Positions 50,334 through 64,000 of a stretch of DNA of 64,000 nt are shown piece after piece (position 1 is the stretch's first letter; the number at the start of each line of letters is the position of its first letter). Both the position numbers and the translations under genes were made by a program. The notes under the pieces were generated by a model that was not told the DNA's origin, did not search any database, and saw nothing but the letters and a program-made list of their open reading frames with translations. The stretch is from Acidobacteriota bacterium (lineage in GTDB: Bacteria > Acidobacteriota > UBA6911 > RPQK01): contig JBHGBF010000001.1 of assembly GCA_041946865.1 (NCBI GenBank), positions 51,338 through 115,337 on the forward strand. The letters are read 5' to 3'.

Positions 50334-52337
50334 ATGAAACAAGCTGCTTTCTGTCTCCTCTTTTCCCTCTTCCTGACTTCGGCTTACGTGGCGGCTCAGG
50401 ATTACGATGTCGTTGTTTACGGAGCGACCGGCGGCGGGGTCGTGGCCTCCGTCGCCGCCGCCCGAGAGGGGAGCACTGTCCTGCTACTCGAGCCGGGCCG
50501 GCATGTGGGCGGGATGGTCACTGGCGGTTTGTCGCACACCGACTACGGAGACAGGACGGTGATCGGCGGACTGGCCATGGAGTTCTACAAGAAAGTCGCC
50601 GATCACTACAAGACACACGTGTTCTACTGGAGAGGACCAGAGCCGCACGTCGGGGAGAAGACCCTGAAGGACTGGCTTCAGGAGTCCAAGGTGGTAGTAC
50701 GGTTCGCAAGCCGCGTGGACCGCGTCGTCAAGCAAGAGCGGACGATCAGGAAAATCATTCTGGTAGATGGGACGGAGGTGTCAGGCAAGGTCTTTGTTGA
50801 CGCGGGATATGAGGGCGACCTGATGGCCCGAGCCGGGGTCAGCTACACCTGCGGTCGAGAAGGGAAAAAAGACTACAACGAGTCGTGGGCCGGGCGGCAA
50901 CCGATCATGCAGACGAGCCACCAGATTGATGCCAGGCTCAATCCCTTCACAAACGATAAAGAAAAAAAGCTGTTGCCGTTGATCAACCCCAGGCCCATGG
51001 TGGAGATCGGCGAAGGTGACAAGGGAATTCAGGCCTACTGCTTTCGGATGATCACCACCAATCGACCCGAAAATATGGTTCCCTGGCCGAAACCCGCTAA
51101 CTACGACCCCTCTGTTTTCGAGCTGGCGAGAAGATATTACCAGGCCCGCCCGGACGCCGGCCCGCTGATTCACTACTGGCCCACTCTTCCAAACGGGAAA
51201 TCGGACATCAATTCCTCAGCAGGCATCTCCACTAATCTCCTGGATGGCTCCAGTTGGGACTATCCGGAAGCGGACTACGCAGAGCGTGATCGAATCTGGC
51301 AGTGGCATAAGGACTACACCCTCGGCCTGGCCTGGTTCCTGGCCCACGACCCGGCGGTTCCTCAGAAGGTCAGGGAGGAAATGAAGACCTTCGGGCTCTG
51401 CAAGGACGAGTATGTAGACAACGATCATTTTCCACATCAACTCTACGTCCGAGTGGCGAGAAGGATGAAAGGCGAGTACTTTCTGACCCAGCATGACCTC
51501 ATCGAACAAACGGAAAAATACGATTCTATCGGCATGGGCTCCTACAACATCGACGTGCGTGAGATGCAGCGTGTCCACATTCCGATCAGCAGATTTCCCG
51601 ACTTGAAGTATGAGGTGTACAACGAAGGGTATCTGTCGATACCGGTCGAACTGTACCAGATACCCTATCGCTCGCTTGTACCGAGGTATTCAGAATGCCA
51701 GAACCTGCTGGTTCCAGTCTGCGTTTCGGGGACACACCTCGCTGTCGCATCCATCCGAATGGAACCGCAGTACATGATCATGGGCCACTCGGCCGGGGTC
51801 GCCGCCGCCGTGGCCGCGAAGACCGGGAGGCCGGTCCAGAAGATCGACACCTATGAGCTCCAGGAGAAGCTGAAAGGCCAGCGGCAGATTCTGTCACTTA
51901 GAGAAAACCCTTACGGGCTGTGGAGCAACGAAAAGGAAATCGTCATCGACAATAACATGAAGGGATTTGTGTCCTTTACCGGCGACTGGTTGGAAGAGGA
52001 GACGGTTCACGCCGGGCGTTACGAGATGAATTTTCGAGTGAAGCGGCCAGGCAGGAGCGGGACCTTCGAATACACTCCCTACTTTTTCAAGTCGGGTAAT
52101 TACAAGGTCTACTCCTGGCATCCCGCTTCAAAAGAGTACGCCGCAGATGTAAGCGTGCAGATCCATCACGCCGGAGGCACGCAAAAGATCAAGCTGAACC
52201 AGCAACAAGGCGGCGGGCGATGGCAGGAAGTGGGCGTATTCAGGTTTGAGCAGGGGCGACGTCTGGCGGTCGAGATCGAGGCGGGAGAGGACCAGCAAGT
52301 CGTCGCCGACGCCTTCAAGTTCCAATTGCTCCAGTAA
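50334..52337 (+). CDS. Secreted FAD-dependent oxidoreductase family protein (FAD_oxidored/PF12831-like)
   Basis: Signal peptide MKQAAFCLLFSLFLTSAYVAAQ. Dinucleotide-binding motif DVVVYGATGGGVVASVAAAREG and GGMVTGGL. 668 aa. Confidence 0.65.
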   Translation: MKQAAFCLLFSLFLTSAYVAAQDYDVVVYGATGGGVVASVAAAREGSTVLLLEPGRHVGGMVTGGLSHTDYGDRTVIGGLAMEFYKKVADHYKTHVFYWRGPEPHVGEKTLKDWLQESKVVVRFASRVDRVVKQERTIRKIILVDGTEVSGKVFVDAGYEGDLMARAGVSYTCGREGKKDYNESWAGRQPIMQTSHQIDARLNPFTNDKEKKLLPLINPRPMVEIGEGDKGIQAYCFRMITTNRPENMVPWPKPANYDPSVFELARRYYQARPDAGPLIHYWPTLPNGKSDINSSAGISTNLLDGSSWDYPEADYAERDRIWQWHKDYTLGLAWFLAHDPAVPQKVREEMKTFGLCKDEYVDNDHFPHQLYVRVARRMKGEYFLTQHDLIEQTEKYDSIGMGSYNIDVREMQRVHIPISRFPDLKYEVYNEGYLSIPVELYQIPYRSLVPRYSECQNLLVPVCVSGTHLAVASIRMEPQYMIMGHSAGVAAAVAAKTGRPVQKIDTYELQEKLKGQRQILSLRENPYGLWSNEKEIVIDNNMKGFVSFTGDWLEEETVHAGRYEMNFRVKRPGRSGTFEYTPYFFKSGNYKVYSWHPASKEYAADVSVQIHHAGGTQKIKLNQQQGGGRWQEVGVFRFEQGRRLAVEIEAGEDQQVVADAFKFQLLQ

Positions 52338-52364
52338 GAAATCGCCCTTCGGCGAAAGAGCGTG

Positions 52365-52427
52365 TTCGCAAAATGGTTACAAATTTACGCAAAATGGTGC
52401 TCTTTTTTCAAGCCTGCCGCCTATAAT
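52365..52427 (+). promoter_or_regulatory. Second copy of the AraC-type operator/promoter: TTCGCAAAATGG (52365), TACGCAAAATGG (52386), TATAAT (52422), upstream of the TonB-dependent receptor gene
   Basis: Same 21-nt-spaced direct repeats and same distance to a TATAAT -10 as at 49002-49063. Confidence 0.45.
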
Positions 52428-52664
52428 CAGCTTATCCAAGCTCTCGACAGGTATGTTGCCTCTAGGCCGAAGCGCAATAGCCGGGACCACTGTCCAAATT
52501 CAAATCGGCGAGGGAGAACCTGTCTCTATGGCGCACTTTCATTCCGCCTTCGGGACGACTGGGAGTCTTGTTCGATGGGGCGATTTTCGCGGTGCAGCCC
52601 GCTTCAGGTTGTCAACGGCCTCCTGGTCTGCCCCATGGTGCACTTACCGCGGAGGAGGATACGT

Positions 52665-55600
52665 ATGAAAAGTCCGTCTTTGAGTCTACTGCTCCTATGC
52701 CTGCTGGGAGCTGGAACTCTTCTTTGCCCGTTACCCCTGCATGCGCAGGGAGTGTTCGGGACGATCAGCGGCACCATTCAAGACTCCAAAGGAGCGGCAA
52801 TTCCGGGTGCAGGCGTGACCGTCACGAACGTGAACACTGGCGTAGTGCGCCAGGTGACGACCAATGAAGTAGGGATCTACACCGCAACCAGTTTGATTCC
52901 CGGCGTGTACAGGGTGGAGGCAGAAATGCCCGGCTTCAAGAAGGCGGTTGTCTCCGATGTCACGCTCGAAGTGAACGCCAACCTGAAGATCAACCTGGTC
53001 ATGGAGTTGGGTGAAGTGACGGAGGTCGTCAACGTCACGTCGGAGGCGCCTCTTCTGACCACCCAGCAATCCAATCTTGGTCAGACCGTGACGCAACGGC
53101 AGATCGAGCAGTTGCCCACGGGACGCGACCTGTTCAACCTGCTTCCGCTCTCAGCAGGGGTATCTCAGCAAGCCGGTTGTGACGGGTGTGGGAACAACGG
53201 CAACATGCGCATCAACGGCGACCGGCCACGTACCCAGGATTACATCCTGGATGGCACCACGATCAACGCGCCGGTGTTCGGGGGCCAGGCGCTCAATCCG
53301 GCGATCGATTCCGTTGCCGAATTCAGAGTCGAGACGAACAGCATGTCCGCCGAATACGGCAAAGCCGGCGGCGGTATCATTATCGCCGTGACTAGGTCGG
53401 GCACGAACGAGTTCCACGGGTCCGGCTACTGGTACCATCGCAACGAAAGCCTCAACGCCCGCAACTTCTTCGAAGATCCGACACAACCCAAGAACCCTTT
53501 TAGCCAGCACGAATTCGGTGGAACAATAGGCGGGCCAATCCTGAGGGACAAGCTGTTCTTCTTTACCGACCTCCAGGTATTACGCCTTGACGGGAGCAGC
53601 CCCAGCGTTGATCACGTCGTGCCGAATTCGGCCTTCCGCAGCGGCGACCTTTCCGCTTTGTGTACGGCCGGTTTCGATGCCGCGGGGATTTGTGCGGACC
53701 CCAGCCAGCAGTTCCGGTTCCCGGGGACGGACCAGTTCGTTCCTTTCAATCGAATCCCCGCCTCGCAGATTAACCCCATTTCGCAGCGGGTCATCGACGT
53801 GTGGCCGTCGTCTACGGTCGCTGGGACTGTGCCCGGAACCAATTTGTTCAGCTTCACGAGGGATAACGATAACAGGACGACCCGGTTTAATCCCCGGGTA
53901 GACTACCACCTGTCGGCGTCGGATCTTTTCTTTGGCGTCTTTCACCGGCAAACCGGCCGCCAGACCTCGCATCCGGGCATTATTCCCGGGCCTGCAGGCG
54001 AACAGATCCACCGGCAGAACGACTATGCACTCACGACGGGGTGGACTCACAGCTTCAGCTCAGTATCCCTGAACGATTTTCGGTTTGGGTATATGCACCG
54101 AATCGGTGACCGCAGCAACCACGGCCAGGGTTCCACTTCGCCGTCGGACTTCGGGCTGCAGGGAATCCCGGATTGTCTGTCCACTATTCCCAACACGGAG
54201 AGTGGCAAGAAGTGCGGCACACCCTCGATCAGCGTTGTCGGATTTCAAGGGCTTGGCGGTGCAGGACTTCTCTATGAGCCGGCAGATACGCTCCAGATCA
54301 ACGACACTTTTTCCCGGCTCTTCGGCCGGCACAACCTGAAGATCGGCGGTGAAGCCCGCCGCTATTCCATCGACAACTACCAGCCGGATGCCGTCGCCAG
54401 CTTCAATTTCACCGGCTCACAAACCGACAATGCCTTTGCCGATTTCCTGTTCGGAACCATTCACAGCGGCTCGGCCGGGCTGCAAAACGCCATGCTTTCG
54501 ACACGGGCCTGGAGTTACTCGCTGTTCATTCAGGATGACTTCAAGCTGACTCCAAGACTAACGCTCAACCTGGGACTGCGGTACCAGTATGATCAGTCGT
54601 TCAGTGAAGTGAACGATGGGCTTGCCTTCTTTAATCCGTTCACGGCGGAGTGGGAACAGTTTGGAGTGAACGCCCCGGACACTCCGTTTGATCCGTCACG
54701 GAAAATGTTCGGGCCGCGTCTCGGGTTTGCGTGGAGTCCGATCAGCGATTTCGTCGTCCGCGCCGGTTACGGCATCACGTATCCGGGTGTGGTCGGTCAC
54801 GGCCGCGGAGGGGACGGCGAGCCCAGTCCCAACCTGAAGGCCACCACGCAGTTTCCGAGGGGAACAAACTGGTCCAGTCTGCCCCCGATCACCAACCCGG
54901 ATCCGTCCGCCATCAGGGCGCCCATAGCCGTGGGAAGCAACGTTTCGTTTTCCGCCTGGGCGCCACGCAAGCAAACGCCGACGTATATCCAGAGCTGGAA
55001 TCTGACGGTCGAGAAGCAACTTACAGGCAGCACCCTGGGGCAGCTGGCGTATGTCGGCACCCGCGGCACGCACTTGCCCATCAATTACGCGTACAACATC
55101 TGCCAGCAGACACGGGAAAGCACGGCGCAATTCGGCTATGACGCTACCACCAGCCCGTTTTGTCCGCTGGCCGCCGAAAAGGTGCTGGCGGCAGGCGGCT
55201 CGCTTTATGATCTGATAGTCACTCCAGGCTATTGGGGCCTCTCCAACTCGATTTATCACGCCATGCAGGCGAAGGTCGAGCGTCGCTTCTCGAGGGGCTT
55301 CTCGCTGCTGGGGACCTTCACCTGGAGCAAGCTGATCGACGATTCGTCCTCGGACTGGGGCGGATTCTGGTCTCTTGACACCCTCGGACAGGACTTCTAC
55401 AACCGGAGGGGGGACCGCTCGGTAAGCGCCGGCGACATTCCGGCTCGCCTCTCGGTGGCCTCCATTGTGGAACTCCCGTTCGGCCCCGGAAAAAAGTGGC
55501 TGAACAAGGGGATTGTTGCTCAGGCACTCGGGGGTTGGCATGTGAGCGCAATCTATTCGCTCAGCAGCGGCACTCCCTTTGGAATCCTGGACAACTGTTA

Positions 55601-61121: not shown

Positions 61122-61271
61122 TCCACCAGCCAGGTCGCTTCCTATCCACGGAAATAGGGGACGACCCTGCTCTGGCTACCGTGTTGCGGCTGCTCAAGCA
61201 GGAGGTGTGGGCTGAAACCTGGGCCCGGTCTGCAGAGGAATCGAAAGCAGCCACGCCGGCCTGGTATCGGT

Positions 61272-61317
61272 TGGTGGGCCTAAGTGGAGTTGAACCACTG
61301 ACCTCACGCTTATCAGG
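61272..61317 (-). tRNA. Truncated 3' portion (anticodon loop to CCA) of tRNA-Ile(GAU); no 5' half present (putative integrase attachment-site remnant)
   Basis: Minus strand reads CTGATAA-GCGTG-AGGTC-AGTGG-TTCAACT-CCACT-TAGGCCC-A-CCA. This aligns base-for-base in architecture with E. coli tRNA-Ile GAU 3' half (CUGAUAA GGGUG AGGUC GGUGG UUCAAGU CCACU CAGGCCU A CCA). The sequence upstream (AAAGAC) cannot form the anticodon stem, D-arm or acceptor 5' strand. Confidence 0.6.
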
Positions 61318-61426
61318 TCTTTCCCAAGTGTTGATAGTATTGGATTTAAATGACTTGTGGGTGCGTATTCCGGCAAATTAGGGGCATTTTGAAACACTTT
61401 CCGCACCCTGGGCGCACCCTGGTTTT

Positions 61427-61624
61427 CTACCGGGTTCGGCCTTTCCAGATCCTTTCTTCCACTGCATCCAAGATGCCTTCGAAATCTTCTAGCCGCTTAC
61501 GGACATCATCCATTGCCAGCTGTGCCACGCTTTCGGGTGACGCCTCGCTGAGAGTAGTCCCTTGTTCGAGGTATTTCTGAATTTCTGGCATCCGGAGCTT
61601 GACCGTGTTGAAAAGAGCATTCAA
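61427..61624 (-). CDS. Hypothetical small protein
   Basis: 65-aa ORF in the element-proximal region. No motif. Confidence 0.25.
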   Translation of the reverse strand: MNALFNTVKLRMPEIQKYLEQGTTLSEASPESVAQLAMDDVRKRLEDFEGILDAVEERIWKGRTR

Positions 61625-61933
61625 GGCTGGCTCCCAATACTCGAAAAACGTTGTAATCCTGCTTCATGGTTCCTTCCTTTCGGCTTAATCGCCGGTTCCT
61701 TCTTCCGCTGTCCGGGAATCAGCGGGCATCGTCTGACGGTAGTATACGAGTCCGTACCGACACCCCGGATTTGTTCCCGGCAAAACGATCAGTTTTTGTC
61801 AGACCGGTCATGATAGAAGCATGGGCCGAAAGACGGGAATCGGCCTAGTGTTCGCGACACGAAAAGGCCCACTCCGAAGCCCTGGCTGATTTCCCCTTCT
61901 CCGGAGATTGCTTGTTGAACGGGGGACAAGGCC

Positions 61934-62614
61934 ATGACCGATGATCAGCTGATAGAACAGGTGGACCAGGAGCTTCGGCGATATGCCGAGGAGTGCCGAA
62001 AATCTGAAATCAAAAAACAGGCACCAGACCCACTCGGGTTTGTTGGCGAGACGGAGGCCGCAGTCCGGAAAATGGCGGACAGTCTCGGCTTCAGCTTCAC
62101 CCGGCAAAGAGTGGAGTTGGCCGCAAGGAGCGATCCGCGATGGGACAGCATAAAGGGCTTCCATGAAAGCCGGAAGGGGCGGAAAGTGCCGCTTCTCCGG
62201 GCTGAGGAGTATTTTCAGCAGGCATCCCAATACCAGGAGCATGAAGCCCAGGCTGATCCGGGACGCGAATCGATGCGAAAGAGGTTTACGGACATTCTGA
62301 ACCGGGATGGCTGCCAGGGTATCTTCCAGGCCTTTGAAAAGGCTGGCCGGAACTGTGCTAAGGGCGAGAAGCCGACTGCAAAGGCGGTAGCGTTCGAACT
62401 GGACGAGGACCTGAACTTCCGGAGCGGCCAGACGTTCCGAGACTGGCAAGAGGAATTCCCGAAAATCACGAAGCCGAGCGACCTGGCGACCATGAAGGGG
62501 AACAATCCGGCAGAGACACAGGCCATGCGGAAGAAGCTGACCAATTTCGTCCACTATTGCAGGAAGAAGATGGTCAAGGCGGATGTCCTGGAACAGTCTC
62601 GGAAATTGTCTTAA
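61934..62614 (+). CDS. Hypothetical protein (charged, helical)
   Basis: 226-aa ORF with protein-like composition (K/E/R-rich). No recognised domain. Confidence 0.45.
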   Translation: MTDDQLIEQVDQELRRYAEECRKSEIKKQAPDPLGFVGETEAAVRKMADSLGFSFTRQRVELAARSDPRWDSIKGFHESRKGRKVPLLRAEEYFQQASQYQEHEAQADPGRESMRKRFTDILNRDGCQGIFQAFEKAGRNCAKGEKPTAKAVAFELDEDLNFRSGQTFRDWQEEFPKITKPSDLATMKGNNPAETQAMRKKLTNFVHYCRKKMVKADVLEQSRKLS

Positions 62615-62710
62615 AATTCCTGTCTTAATCTTAATGCTGTCTTAAAACGCTTTTTGCAAACCCGCGTCTTTCCTGCCTTTCGAAAGATTTTTGTCTTACT
62701 GCTGTCTTAC
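62607..62710. repeat. Five direct copies of (C/T)TGTCTTA(A/C) within ~100 nt (iteron-like array)
   Basis: TGTCTTA at 62607, 62621, 62638, 62692 and 62704. AT-rich context (ttgtcttaaaattcctgtcttaatcttaatgctgtcttaaaac...ttgtcttactgctgtcttac) immediately upstream of the excisionase-like gene. Confidence 0.5.
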
Positions 62711-62751
62711 TTCCGAACCAGGGGCCTGAACCTGCGACACAATTCCCCGCG

Positions 62752-63048
62752 ATGGCAGGCGAAAGGCCGAAAGGCGTCATCGACATCCAAGACGTTTTGC
62801 AATACCTGGAAAGGGATGCCTGGCTTGATAAGCGCGGCGCCTGCGATTACCTGAAGGTCAAGGAAAGAACCCTTCAGGAGTACATGCACGAGGGCCTTCC
62901 CTATTACCGCCTCAGTCCCAAGCTGCTCCGGTTCAAACGTTCCGAACTAGACCGCTGGATGACTCAATTCCGCTGCCAGGCAGGCGGGACCAGGCGGATT
63001 GTCGAGGACGTTGTGAGCCAGTTCAAGAAAAGGAGAGTCCGCCAATGA
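62752..63048 (+). CDS. Excisionase-family helix-turn-helix DNA-binding protein (HTH_17/AlpA-like)
   Basis: DYLKVKERTLQEYMHEGLPYYRLSPKLLRFKRSELDRWM matches the excisionase-type HTH pattern (sequence, then stv.rwi..g.lP..rig.r.irf....l..wl). Confidence 0.5.
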   Translation: MAGERPKGVIDIQDVLQYLERDAWLDKRGACDYLKVKERTLQEYMHEGLPYYRLSPKLLRFKRSELDRWMTQFRCQAGGTRRIVEDVVSQFKKRRVRQ

Positions 63049-63272
63049 GAGCAAGCCAGGCTAAAACCGTGAAGCTGGACCTCTCGGCTCATTTTGTCGA
63101 ACGTTACGGGGCTGACGCACACCGAATTGCTGAGATTGTCCGCGAACTTGCAGCCCAAGGGGACCGTCGCGGCCTGGAGGATCTGATTGAAGTGTTTTCG
63201 GCTGCCCTGGCCGGAGCGAATCAGGTTCTCAGGATGAGTAACCGACGCACCTTGGACCTGGAGGTTCTGTAA
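63045..63272 (+). CDS. Hypothetical small protein (translationally coupled to preceding gene)
   Basis: 75-aa ORF with ATGA overlap to the excisionase-like gene. No motif. Confidence 0.35.
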   Translation: MRASQAKTVKLDLSAHFVERYGADAHRIAEIVRELAAQGDRRGLEDLIEVFSAALAGANQVLRMSNRRTLDLEVL

Positions 63273-63334
63273 GCAAAGGGAGAAAAAGGCCCGGCAGCCA
63301 GCCAGGACAACCGGGCCAAAACACGGGAGTTGTT

Positions 63335-63715
63335 ATGGGCAAGCGCAAGAGTAGCACATTGATGCCGTTCGGTCGATACAAAGGCCGTCCGCTCTCGAAG
63401 CTGCCCGAGCCTTATTTCCGATGGCTCTTAACCATCGACCTTCGCCCGCCACTTGTTGATGCTGTTTGGAAAGAAGCCGAACGCCGCAATCAGAAGGCCC
63501 TGACCTGCGACTCACCCGGCATCCCGCCTGACCTGGCACCTGCCCTGACCGAAATGGTCACTCGCGGGTTCAGAGCGGCAGCCCGCGAACATCATCCCGA
63601 TGTCGGCGGCGACAGCGAGCTTATGCGCGTCTTCAATGCAGCGCGGGAGTGGTGGGAAAAGCATGTACCCACGGGGAGGGACAGTGGCAGGACTGACCAG
63701 GACGACGCCTCTTGA
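63335..63715 (+). CDS. DUF3820-like protein (MPFGRYKGRPLS...YFRWL motif) with C-terminal J-domain-like HPD segment
   Basis: N-terminus MPFGRYKGRPLSKLPEPYFRWLL resembles the DUF3820 signature (MPFGKYKGk.l.e.p..YL.WL) common in phage/plasmid genes. The C-terminus AAREHHPDVGGDSELMRVFNAAREW resembles the DnaJ helix II-III KYHPDxNxG..eA.ekFkei.eAYevL. Confidence 0.45.
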   Translation: MGKRKSSTLMPFGRYKGRPLSKLPEPYFRWLLTIDLRPPLVDAVWKEAERRNQKALTCDSPGIPPDLAPALTEMVTRGFRAAAREHHPDVGGDSELMRVFNAAREWWEKHVPTGRDSGRTDQDDAS

Positions 63716-63740
63716 GAAACTCCGTCGTTTGGAGGATCTG

Positions 63741-64000
63741 ATGAAGCGGTGGGCAAAATCCAATCGGACCAGTGCCGAACTCCGTATCCTGATCTTGGTG
63801 GGACTCGCGACTGTCCCTTACGGGAAAGATCGCTTCCCGCTTTCGGTTGGGAAGCTGTCGCGGGACAGCGGATTAACCCGACGAACCGTTGAAAAGGCCC
63901 TGAACTCACTGCTCGGAACCGGCTGGCTGGTCAAGCACGGGGTCACCACCGTCAAAGTGGGGAATCAAAATTACAGAGTCTCCGTTTTGAGCATAGGCAC
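63741..64000 (+). CDS. Partial ORF (runs off window), winged-helix-like DNA-binding protein; possible replication/regulatory protein of the element
   Basis: ATG at 63741 preceded by GGAGGA. MKRWAKSNRTSAELRILILVGLATVPYGKDRFPLSVGKLSRDSGLTRRTVEKALNSLLGTGWLVKHG has an HTH-like LSRDSGLTRRTVEKAL. No stop within the window. Confidence 0.4.
   Translation, partial: MKRWAKSNRTSAELRILILVGLATVPYGKDRFPLSVGKLSRDSGLTRRTVEKALNSLLGTGWLVKHGVTTVKVGNQNYRVSVLSIG

Follow-up and report, generated by a model that had tools for sequence, protein, structure and literature searches.

A tRNA-Ile(GAU) 3' fragment at the edge of a probable phage-derived element in an Acidobacteriota genome

A tRNA gene that is present only as its 3' part raises two questions: how it came to lose the rest of its sequence, and what DNA now lies in its place. 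Such a fragment is found near the right-hand end of a 64,000-nucleotide stretch of an Acidobacteriota genome (contig JBHGBF010000001.1; hereafter the window), where the original prediction saw the mark of an integrated element.

The fragment and the DNA on either side

Window positions 61272-61317 read TGGTGGGCCTAAGTGGAGTTGAACCACTGACCTCACGCTTATCAGG, and the reverse complement, CCTGATAAGCGTGAGGTCAGTGGTTCAACTCCACTTAGGCCCACCA, is the 3' part of a tRNA-Ile(GAU) gene, which bears out the identity and minus-strand orientation first assigned to it. The fragment starts with the final base of the anticodon stem's 5' strand and continues through the anticodon loop, which contains GAT, and the 3' strand of that stem; the variable loop, the T-arm, the 3' strand of the acceptor stem and CCA follow. 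It is identical at all 46 positions to tRNA-Ile(GAU) genes that ARAGORN recognises as intact in two other loci (L009 and L050), and a 38-nt piece of it recurs exactly in 119 further intact tRNA-Ile(GAU) genes on metagenome contigs. Judged from sequence, a perfect match of 46 nt cannot have arisen by chance. The identity breaks sharply at 61318, where the window reads TCTTTCCC and the tRNA CGTGCGC, and beyond this point there is neither a D-arm nor an acceptor 5' strand. ARAGORN calls no tRNA in the whole 64 kb window, the Rfam tRNA model has no match with E <= 10 between 60000 and 64000, and the fragment sequence is single-copy within the window; the 5' half is absent from the site, as had been claimed. 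The features of the locus are as follows, in window coordinates.

61122-61271, no strand: chromosomal flank on the tRNA-downstream side, from the stop codon of a MacB-type permease gene to the fragment (from L002 homology)
61272-61317, minus: tRNA-Ile(GAU) 3' fragment, 46 nt, anticodon loop to CCA (46/46 identity to intact genes)
61402-61422, plus: two direct copies of CGCACCCTGG at 11 bp spacing, putative arm-type sites, 86 bp inside the element
61427-61624, minus: candidate ORF of 65 aa, the sole candidate leftward gene of the element (ORF list)
61838-61905, plus: stretch resembling the int-alpA RNA motif (RF02996) with a score below threshold (32.7 bits); lies upstream of the rightward genes
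61934-62614, plus: ORFan of 226 aa, first gene of the rightward module (ORF without family match)
62752-63048, plus: AlpA/excisionase-type HTH protein, 98 aa (PF12728 HTH_17, phrog_66)
63045-63272, plus: 75-aa protein (ORF list and gene call on contig L001; no family match)
63335-63715, plus: protein of 126 aa, PF12843 motif at the N-terminus, J-domain-like stretch with HPD at the C-terminus (Pfam, translation)
63684-64000, plus: replication-initiation protein gene, 5' part (phrog_270, HTH_36)
69419-70438 (window-equivalent; 8132-9151 of L001), plus: tyrosine integrase, last gene of the module (PF00589, PF14659, phrog_1)

The genes to the left of the fragment are ordinary Acidobacteriota genes with a GC content typical of the window. 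The MacB/FtsX permease genes are shared with a locus from a related Acidobacteriota MAG (L002), which is about 91% identical at the nucleotide level through the permease gene and loses homology near 61152, and the permease pair and its regulator are conserved both there and in a further locus (L003). Synteny between the window and L002 extends over only about 5 kb and ends roughly 120 bp before the fragment; L002 lacks the element and also lacks a tRNA after the permease gene. A comparison with related genomes that might retain an uninserted site had been suggested, and it yielded none: L002 and L003 have the permease block, no tRNA and no synteny past 61152, and BLAST of both window flanks against 120 contigs carrying tRNA-Ile gave no match.

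The DNA to the right of the fragment could be followed beyond the end of the window on a Logan contig (L001), which is identical to the window over 2713 of 2713 bases and adds 6.7 kb, for 9.4 kb recovered in total. This contig begins at 61288, so that its first 31 bases just reach 61318, the first element-specific base. Such a start fits a branch of the assembly graph inside shared tRNA sequence, provided that the k of Logan is 31, as we take it to be. GC content is 55.5% over 61318-64000 and 59.8% over 1-61271, and the lowest value among same-size windows elsewhere is 55.9%. The predicted drop toward higher coordinates is thus real and modest in size; the composition of the element (55.5-57.0% GC, against 59.8%) differs from that of the host chromosome by a small margin, and because ordinary genes at 51-53 kb also fall to 55-56% GC, we give the drop little weight as stand-alone evidence.

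With foreign DNA on its 5' side and chromosome on its 3' side, the fragment agrees with the prediction of a displaced integration copy whose element lies at higher coordinates. We regard as largely right the view that the fragment represents the att core copy of an element at the end away from the integrase, and that one boundary of this element is thereby fixed to base 61317/61318.

Gene content of the element

L001 shows a single co-directional module that runs rightward from 61318. The 226-aa ORFan comes first, followed by an AlpA-like protein and a replication initiator; next are a zinc-ribbon/HNH-like protein, an HK97 capsid protein and a metallopeptidase, and the integrase closes the module. 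The ORFan is its own only full-length match among 1.84 billion representative proteins. The 98-aa HTH protein matches PF12728 HTH_17 (E 1.6e-8) and phrog_66, ‘excisionase and transcriptional regulator’ (3.4e-6). The 126-aa protein matches PF12843, presumably the former DUF3820, at E 1.2e-7, shows weak similarity to the C-terminal segment of DnaQ-type NCBIfam models, and has an HPD motif that was read from the translation. The replication initiator is cut by the window end; the full gene (2397-3365 of L001) runs to window-equivalent 64652 and encodes 322 aa with an HTH_36-type helix-turn-helix and a match to phrog_270, ‘replication initiation protein’ (1e-26). Small phage-like genes had been anticipated here, and profiles match the HTH_17, PF12843 and HTH_36-type genes alike. 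The 65-aa leftward ORF has no Pfam or PHROG match.

Upstream of the rightward genes, the likeness to the int-alpA RNA is full-length and includes the outer stem and the conserved CUAG, CGAAAAG and CCUGGC stretches; in a circular form of the element, it would sit between the integrase and AlpA-like genes. A firm call was rejected because the score (32.7 bits; E 4e-4 with 4 kb searched) misses the gathering score of 35.8, the fold at 61838-61905 is no more stable than shuffled sequence (z = 0), and the motif was not seen in the related loci searched.

Most of the closest homologues of the HK97 major capsid protein bear an S78 protease domain, which is missing here, and a small M41-like metallopeptidase is encoded between the capsid and integrase genes. 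Searches of the element with Pfam, PHROG and NCBIfam detected neither a portal nor a prohead protease, and no small terminase or recognisable head-tail connector either; the remaining ORFs, with those of 113, 137, 80 and 119 aa on L001 among them, match none of these collections, and none is of portal size. The closest capsid homologue anywhere is 52% identical, IMG/VR holds only a capsid protein of 37% identity and integrases of at most 28% identity, and no close relative of the whole element was found. The sequence at the end of the window or of L001 had no exact match in genome, viral or metagenome collections through which the locus might have been extended, and the MacB permease and two further proteins (P0121 and P0197) had no exact protein match. 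From this gene content, the description of the element as a phage-derived mobile module of roughly 9.5 kb, whose insertion would be an ordinary type of event, appears largely right.

The integrase, its target and the unrecovered junction

The link between the integrase and tRNA-Ile that the original prediction drew is supported by other genomes, where homologues of this integrase (48-78% identity) adjoin tRNA-Ile(GAU) genes in four contexts. Three closer homologues share one layout: the integrase gene, GCACCCT repeats, 68-70 bp, and a tRNA-Ile(GAU) gene that is encoded on the other strand and turns its 3' end to the repeats. This layout is seen with integrases of 65% (L009) and 69% (L136) identity and in L050, which retains an integrase fragment of 78% identity and has a 402-aa ORF between this fragment and the GCACCCT repeats. 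In three contexts the distance from the end of the integrase gene to the tRNA 3' end is 110-130 bp, and two more distant contexts have cargo genes between integrase and tRNA; in L137/L138 (48% identity) a 1086-aa gene separates the integrase from the repeats and the tRNA. The integrase of the present element points rightward, toward the expected tRNA end, as those of its relatives do.

The CGCACCCTGG pair is the only set of exact copies in the 64 kb window. Its core pattern, GCACCCT-N4-GCACCCT, occurs once in the window, at 61403; each of the eight loci that carry this integrase family has it, without exception on the strand of the integrase gene, and the 135 other loci, 870 kb in total, do not. 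One family member (L142/L143) has the repeat and no tRNA nearby. From this co-occurrence, we infer that the GCACCCT repeats may be arm-binding sites of the integrase, although they lie on the integrase-proximal arm in the relatives and on the distal arm in the window.

Genomic context also bears on the kind of tRNA gene that was targeted. In 110 of 120 sampled contigs, tRNA-Ile(GAU) adjoins tRNA-Ala, an arrangement typical of rRNA-operon spacers; it stands alone in L137, and we take the target here to have been stand-alone likewise. Taken together, we think it very probable that a lambda-type tyrosine integrase inserted a phage-derived element of about 9.5 kb into a tRNA-Ile(GAU) gene that stood alone, and that the fragment is the displaced 3' part of that gene. 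Hypothetically, the attP of this element would have borne a 46-bp copy of the segment from anticodon loop to CCA, flanked by GCACCCT arm-type repeats 11 bp apart. An integrase binding both core and arm sites would have recombined it into the tRNA gene by strand exchange in or near the anticodon loop, so that an intact tRNA would be rebuilt beside the integrase gene and the original 3' part would stay beside the DNA that had always followed it, where the MacB permease genes lie.

Of the integrase and intact tRNA that were expected beyond 64000, the former was found, at window-equivalent 69419-70438, and the latter was not found in the recovered sequence. The integrase breaks off after RFHDL, so that some 80 residues of its C-terminus are missing, the catalytic Tyr among them; of the 172 positions in the Pfam integrase profile it covers 4-133, and its alignment with a homologue (P0002) ends at HDL. 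Where about 250 bp of further integrase gene, a spacer of roughly 110 bp and the tRNA would be expected, there is unrelated sequence. No tRNA and no second core repeat is present in L001, including the 281 bp after the integrase gene; the direct repeat of the 46-nt core that was to be sought downstream is therefore represented by a single att copy. Given the truncation and the lack of a tRNA within 281 bp, the integrase-side junction has been deleted or rearranged, or lies beyond the recovered sequence. An IS insertion at the break was considered, and neither the junction sequence nor the L001 tail has a copy in the window or the other loci; Rfam, with which an RNA family was sought at that tail, has no match in L001, L134 or L135. 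A split integrase of the SSV type was rejected because the break has no similarity to the 46-nt core and no integrase C-terminus lies beside the fragment (61181-61400).

It may be asked whether the truncation is real. If the break and the missing tRNA reflected mis-assembly or a strain variant at the right-hand junction, the element could be intact and mobile. L001 does end 281 bp past the integrase stop, within a sequence also present in other genomes, at which assemblies would be expected to break, and the accession and locus-tag numbering suggest that the 122 kb MAG contig also ends soon after; the far end of the element is therefore poorly resolved. However, an identical 339-aa product is annotated in the NCBI MAG and encoded on the Logan contig, and the latter runs through the break point without a branch, which we read as there being no competing intact version of the integrase in that sample. 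The sequence past HDL, moreover, resembles neither integrase C-termini nor spacers nor tRNA, and we consider an intact element very unlikely. The element as it stands is probably a fixed, non-excisable remnant.

Two further readings concern the fragment itself, and both seem to us highly improbable, to a similar degree. One holds that it is a decayed or partly duplicated tRNA-Ile pseudogene that lies beside a mobile element by coincidence. Local tandem duplication can indeed yield partial 3' copies of tRNA-Ile, as in the rRNA spacer of L123, and a second att copy was not recovered here. A conservation of 46/46 is nonetheless unlike a decaying pseudogene, and the fragment is bounded at the anticodon loop, a classic sublocation for crossover. 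It also abuts an element whose integrase family adjoins tRNA-Ile in those four other contexts, with the family-specific repeat 86 bp away, and has no intact tRNA nearby, in contrast to L123. The other reading takes the 46 nt as an attP core that lies within mobile DNA, be it a tandem array, a nested one or a larger island that extends to the left as well, so that the true chromosomal boundary would be elsewhere. The 120 bp at 61152-61271 that fall outside the L002 homology, and the shortness of that synteny, leave room for such an arrangement, but the 150 bp left of the fragment (61122-61271) contain no integrase 3' end, no GCACCCT motif and no likeness to the spacers of relatives, and the genes farther left are the ordinary, compositionally typical ones described above, with the permease pair and regulator kept in both related loci.

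Relation to known elements and what it may mean

Elements that target tRNA genes with lambda-type tyrosine integrases reportedly include a class whose sublocation is the anticodon loop. The present element resembles this class in its 46-bp identity block from anticodon loop to 3' CCA, in the displaced 3' fragment at the integrase-distal end, in the integrase gene that, in its relatives, converges on the tRNA 3' end, and in repeated arm-type motifs about 70-90 bp from the core. It differs in its tRNA-Ile(GAU) target, its truncated integrase and an intact-tRNA junction that is missing or unrecovered.

Phage satellites of the PICI type and their capsid-forming variety (cfPICI) are small and share genes for an integrase, an AlpA-like regulator, replication initiation and an HNH-like protein; cfPICI also encode their own capsid. 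The element, at about 9.5 kb, has counterparts of all four, its integrase being of the tyrosine type, and it has its own HK97-fold capsid gene in one co-directional block. The combination of integrase, AlpA and replication module, a cfPICI trait, is represented by the phrog_1, HTH_17/phrog_66 and phrog_270 matches. Unlike in cfPICI, no full head and packaging module (capsid plus portal, protease, small terminase and head-tail connectors) was detected, only the capsid and HNH-like zinc-ribbon proteins being seen; its capsid protein is without the S78 domain, and no close relatives of the whole were found. Cryptic or defective prophage remnants offer another comparison, since an inactivated integrase, the absence of most morphogenesis and lysis genes and a single att scar are shared with them. 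The genes of the element, in contrast, are compact, co-directional and apparently intact, not a patchwork of gene fragments. The element may be what is left of a capsid-encoding phage satellite after degradation, or a prophage that has undergone heavy deletion.

A distant gammaproteobacterial symbiont carries, next to tRNA-Val, a minimal island of integrase, PrimPol and capsid (L140), which hints that a minimal architecture of this kind may be real. We offer as a speculation, one that we consider rather doubtful, that the element belongs to an undescribed Acidobacteriota lineage of minimal, helper-dependent, capsid-encoding satellites specific for stand-alone tRNA-Ile(GAU) genes, whose gene set would consist of an integrase, an AlpA-like regulator and a replication initiator together with an HK97 capsid protein that lacks the protease. 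If this were true, there would be satellites without portal or terminase, with a 46-bp core and GCACCCT arms, for which a helper phage supplies everything except the capsid shell, and the L140 island would be an analogous case in another phylum.

If the element is not a satellite, it represents a textbook integration scar and poses no new mechanistic question. If it is a satellite rather than a remnant, capsid-encoding satellites would reach a new phylum and a smaller gene set. The locus ties an integrase clade both to tRNA-Ile(GAU) as its target and to a motif that is a candidate for the arm sites. For soil Acidobacteriota, in which few mobile elements have so far been described, this may be of use when islands and prophage-like elements are annotated.

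A tRNA-Ile fragment between chromosome and phage-derived genes

The 46 nucleotides at window 61272-61317, TGGTGGGCCTAAGTGGAGTTGAACCACTGACCTCACGCTTATCAGG, are on the minus strand the 3' part of tRNA-Ile(GAU): anticodon loop CTGATAA, 3' anticodon stem, variable loop, T-arm, acceptor 3' strand and CCA. When aligned with intact tRNA-Ile(GAU) genes on two other Acidobacteriota contigs (L009 and L050), the fragment is identical at 46/46 positions, and divergence is abrupt at 61318 (window TCTTTCCC versus CGTGCGC in the tRNA). A 38-nt piece of the fragment was used to retrieve 120 metagenome contigs; in 119 of them the piece lies, without mismatch, within intact tRNA-Ile(GAU) genes. Within the window the fragment sequence occurs only once. 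Given this identity, the sharp end, the exact matches and the single copy, the fragment is real at these coordinates and far beyond chance. ARAGORN detected no tRNA in the whole 64 kb window, and the Rfam tRNA model matched nothing between 60000 and 64000 even at E <= 10, which bears out the original prediction of a tRNA-Ile 3' fragment lacking its 5' half. Its argument from orientation was also correct, as foreign DNA lies on the 5' side of the fragment, at higher coordinates.

To the left lie genes for an FAD oxidoreductase, a TonB-type outer-membrane protein, an OmpR/PD40 regulator and two MacB/FtsX permeases. The regulator and permease block is shared with a locus from a related Acidobacteriota MAG (L002; permease 94% identical) at 84-91% nucleotide identity up to 61152. 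Judged by these ordinary chromosomal genes and by the shared block, the left side is shown to be chromosome. As a candidate insertion-free relative, L002 gives no clean empty site: synteny ends at 61152, the sequences beyond are unrelated, and no tRNA was found within 10 kb. GC content falls past the fragment, as first noted: it is 55.5% for 61318-64000 and 57.0% when the stretch is taken as far as the integrase, whereas the rest of the window has 59.8%. It is below every same-size window elsewhere, but by a small margin. Ordinary genes at 51001-53000 (the FAD oxidoreductase and TonB-type protein) dip to 55-56%, so dips of this size arise here without a mobile element.

A 9432-bp Logan assembly contig from run SRR29307520 (L001), which encodes the 126-aa protein of the window, matches the window at every one of the 2713 overlapping bases (61288-64000) and therefore extends it by 6.7 kb (L001 position x is window position x + 61287). 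It starts at 61288, and its first 31 bases just reach 61318, the first non-tRNA base. If Logan uses k = 31, as we presume, this start implies that purely tRNA-part sequence is common to other DNA in the SRR29307520 sample, and it fits the fragment boundary found by alignment.

Gene content of the element

From the fragment as far as the integrase, every called gene is on the plus strand.

Genes of the phage-derived element, from the tRNA-Ile fragment to the integrase
226-aa ORFan; plus; only full-length match among 1.84 billion representatives is itself
AlpA/excisionase-type HTH protein; plus; PF12728 at 1.6e-8, phrog_66
75-aa protein; plus; no match
126-aa protein; window 63335-63715; plus; PF12843 (former DUF3820) and HPD motif
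322-aa replication initiator; plus; phrog_270 at 1e-26
119-aa protein; plus; no match
178-aa cysteine-rich protein; plus; zinc ribbon, HNH-like
Two small ORFs (70 and 78 aa); plus; no match, coiled-coil-looking on reading the translations
418-aa HK97-fold major capsid protein; plus; PF05065 at 3e-28, phrog_617 at 1e-62, 33-42% identity to phage capsid proteins
Three small ORFs (113, 137 and 80 aa); plus; no match
171-aa stand-alone M41-like metallopeptidase; L001 7540-8055 (window-equivalent 68827-69342); plus; HEAGH motif
Tyrosine integrase; L001 8132-9151; PF00589, phrog_1

Of the phage-like genes first noted at higher coordinates, the AlpA/excisionase-type HTH protein and the PF12843 protein are present, together with a replication initiator and a capsid protein. 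Searches of the element's genes turned up none for portal, terminase, protease, tail or lysis functions. Most of the closest homologues of the capsid protein (<= 52% identity) are prohead protease-capsid fusions; the element copy is without the protease part.

Several smaller features were observed. The 171-aa protein matches only the zinc-binding part of FtsH-type M41 peptidases, and a small soluble protease of this type is unusual cargo. In the 126-aa protein, the N-terminal PF12843 motif also resembles the C-terminal segment of DnaQ-type models, and the C-terminal stretch holds the J-domain signature HPD (REHHPDVGGD). At 61640-61670 (minus strand), upstream of a 65-aa minus-strand ORF, an ATG has a good ribosome-binding site but does not share the frame of the protein-like reading, so this putative gene may be frameshifted or start at an unusual codon. 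The int-alpA RNA motif (RF02996) matches in full length at 61838-61905 (plus strand) below threshold (32.7 bits, gathering 35.8); in a circular form of the element this would lie between the integrase and AlpA-like genes. Folding thermodynamics lend this candidate no support, and it was absent from the related loci searched. A weak D12-methyl RNA match inside the coding sequence of the 126-aa protein (63626-63684, plus strand; 28 bits, gathering 57, E 0.026) is most likely due to chance.

The integrase family, tRNA-Ile and GCACCCT repeats

The integrase has 664 homologues at E <= 1e-20, and we inspected the genomic contexts of four, together with a fifth locus, L050, from the tRNA scan. In the first (P0002 on L009, 65% identity), an intact tRNA-Ile(GAU) lies 108 bp beyond the integrase stop, on the opposite strand, with its 3' end facing the integrase and its 3' 46 nt equal to the window fragment. 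P0003 (69%, L136) has the same layout, the contig ending inside the tRNA. Near the same tRNA-Ile in L050 is the C-terminal remnant of an integrase (78% identity to P0002), and a 402-aa ORF lies between this remnant and the GCACCCT repeat. For P0007 (48%, L137/L138) the order is integrase, duplicated integrase C-terminal fragment, 1086-aa gene and tRNA-Ile(GAU), with the tRNA oriented relative to the integrase as before; because purine-synthesis genes come next, this tRNA stands alone and does not belong to an rRNA spacer. No tRNA lies near P0018 (48%, L142/L143). The integrase-family C-terminal fragments at L137 11240-11400 and L050 1499-1762, between the integrase gene or contig end and tRNA-Ile, suggest that, in several Acidobacteriota lineages, elements have integrated at this tRNA and decayed more than once.

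The repeat GCACCCT-N4-GCACCCT occurs in 8/8 loci with this integrase family, always on the integrase strand, and in none of the 135 other loci compared (870 kb in total). Where relatives have the tRNA, the pair is 68-70 bp from its CCA end on the integrase side. The window has one pair (61403-61420), located differently: within the element, 86 bp from the fragment's anticodon-loop end. The 64 kb hold only two exact copies of CGCACCCTGG, both in this pair region. From their position and co-occurrence with the integrase family, we infer that the repeats, on both arms of a ~240-bp attP, are candidate arm-type binding sites for the integrase.

The element's integrase covers positions 4-133 of the 172-position Pfam catalytic-domain profile. 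Its alignment to P0002 stops at RFHDL and is followed by nine unrelated residues and a stop codon, a shortfall of about 83 codons that includes the catalytic Tyr. Relative to L009, the missing stretch comprises ~250 bp of integrase gene, the ~108 bp spacer and the 77-bp tRNA; past the break L001 has ~310 bp of unrelated sequence before it ends. The truncation is probably real and not an assembly error, because the same 339-aa product is annotated in a 122,265-bp NCBI Acidobacteriota MAG contig (MFB3901923; next protein MFB3901924, ACE15E_00585) and L001 crosses the break without interruption. By our estimate from locus-tag number and gene density, the NCBI contig ends soon after the integrase. 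Of the integrase and intact tRNA expected past 64000, the former was found, in truncated form, and L001 holds no tRNA. An SSV-type integrase, split by its own attP, was excluded.

In different Acidobacteriota contigs, contexts that otherwise have nothing in common share a ~90% conserved block of ~100 nt, perhaps as long as 330 nt (L001 9343-9432, window-equivalent ~70630-70719 and outside the window; L134 ~1-340; L135 ~720-890), and L001 ends inside it. Annotated or translated as spurious small proteins (P0121-P0126; common peptide GAAEDPALLSYAGLKRETPDRPEPGVPQV), it has a terminator-like hairpin, a second stable hairpin and no Rfam match, and may be an undescribed small RNA or miniature repeat.

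Origin and kind of element

A perfect tRNA 3' fragment at the junction of chromosome and phage-derived module, a tyrosine integrase at the module's far end and integrase relatives adjoining tRNA-Ile(GAU) are well explained by a textbook process of integration. We propose that an attP with a 46-bp tRNA copy underwent core-type recombination with the chromosomal tRNA-Ile gene, in the anticodon loop or close to it, that the GCACCCT arm sites directed the integrase, and that the AlpA-like protein probably acted in directionality or regulation. A later deletion or insertion would have taken away the integrase C-terminus and the reconstituted tRNA junction, fixing in place an element of an estimated original length of about 9.45 kb.

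Partial tRNA copies can have another origin. In the 120th metagenome contig (L123), the 38-nt piece is confined to a partial copy adjoining intact tRNA-Ile; at 290-600, in rRNA-spacer context, the intact gene is followed by two further partial 3'-half copies, in tandem units of about 120-125 bp, and then tRNA-Ala. This is local duplication, not an integration scar. A pseudogene of that kind does not fit the window fragment, which is perfectly conserved, adjoins a mobile element and is accompanied by the family-specific GCACCCT repeat. A larger island with the fragment as an embedded attP is unlikely, as the left side has chromosomal genes and is conserved; this support reaches 61152 and does not cover the 120 bp at 61152-61271.

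With its integrase, AlpA-like protein, replication initiator, HNH-like protein and own capsid gene, the integrated element resembles PICI/cfPICI satellites. By the features known for cfPICIs it falls outside their definition, as portal, protease, small terminase and connector genes were not detected in it. It could equally be a heavily deleted prophage, as would be suggested by the broken integrase, the capsid protein's loss of its protease domain and the 234-bp gap that precedes the capsid gene. A comparable island of ~8 kb in a gammaproteobacterial tubeworm symbiont (L140 4462-12381) carries a P4-type integrase, an IS, a PrimPol and a protease-capsid fusion whose capsid protein is, at 52%, the closest homologue of the element's; the island ends at tRNA-Val(GAC), and no further phage gene was detected in it. 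Such minimal gene sets therefore recur. Three points are of moderate interest: that the element may be a minimal capsid-encoding satellite; that its target is tRNA-Ile(GAU), which adjoins tRNA-Ala in the rRNA-spacer arrangement in 110 of the 120 sampled contigs; and that an Acidobacteriota integrase clade has a candidate arm-site motif.
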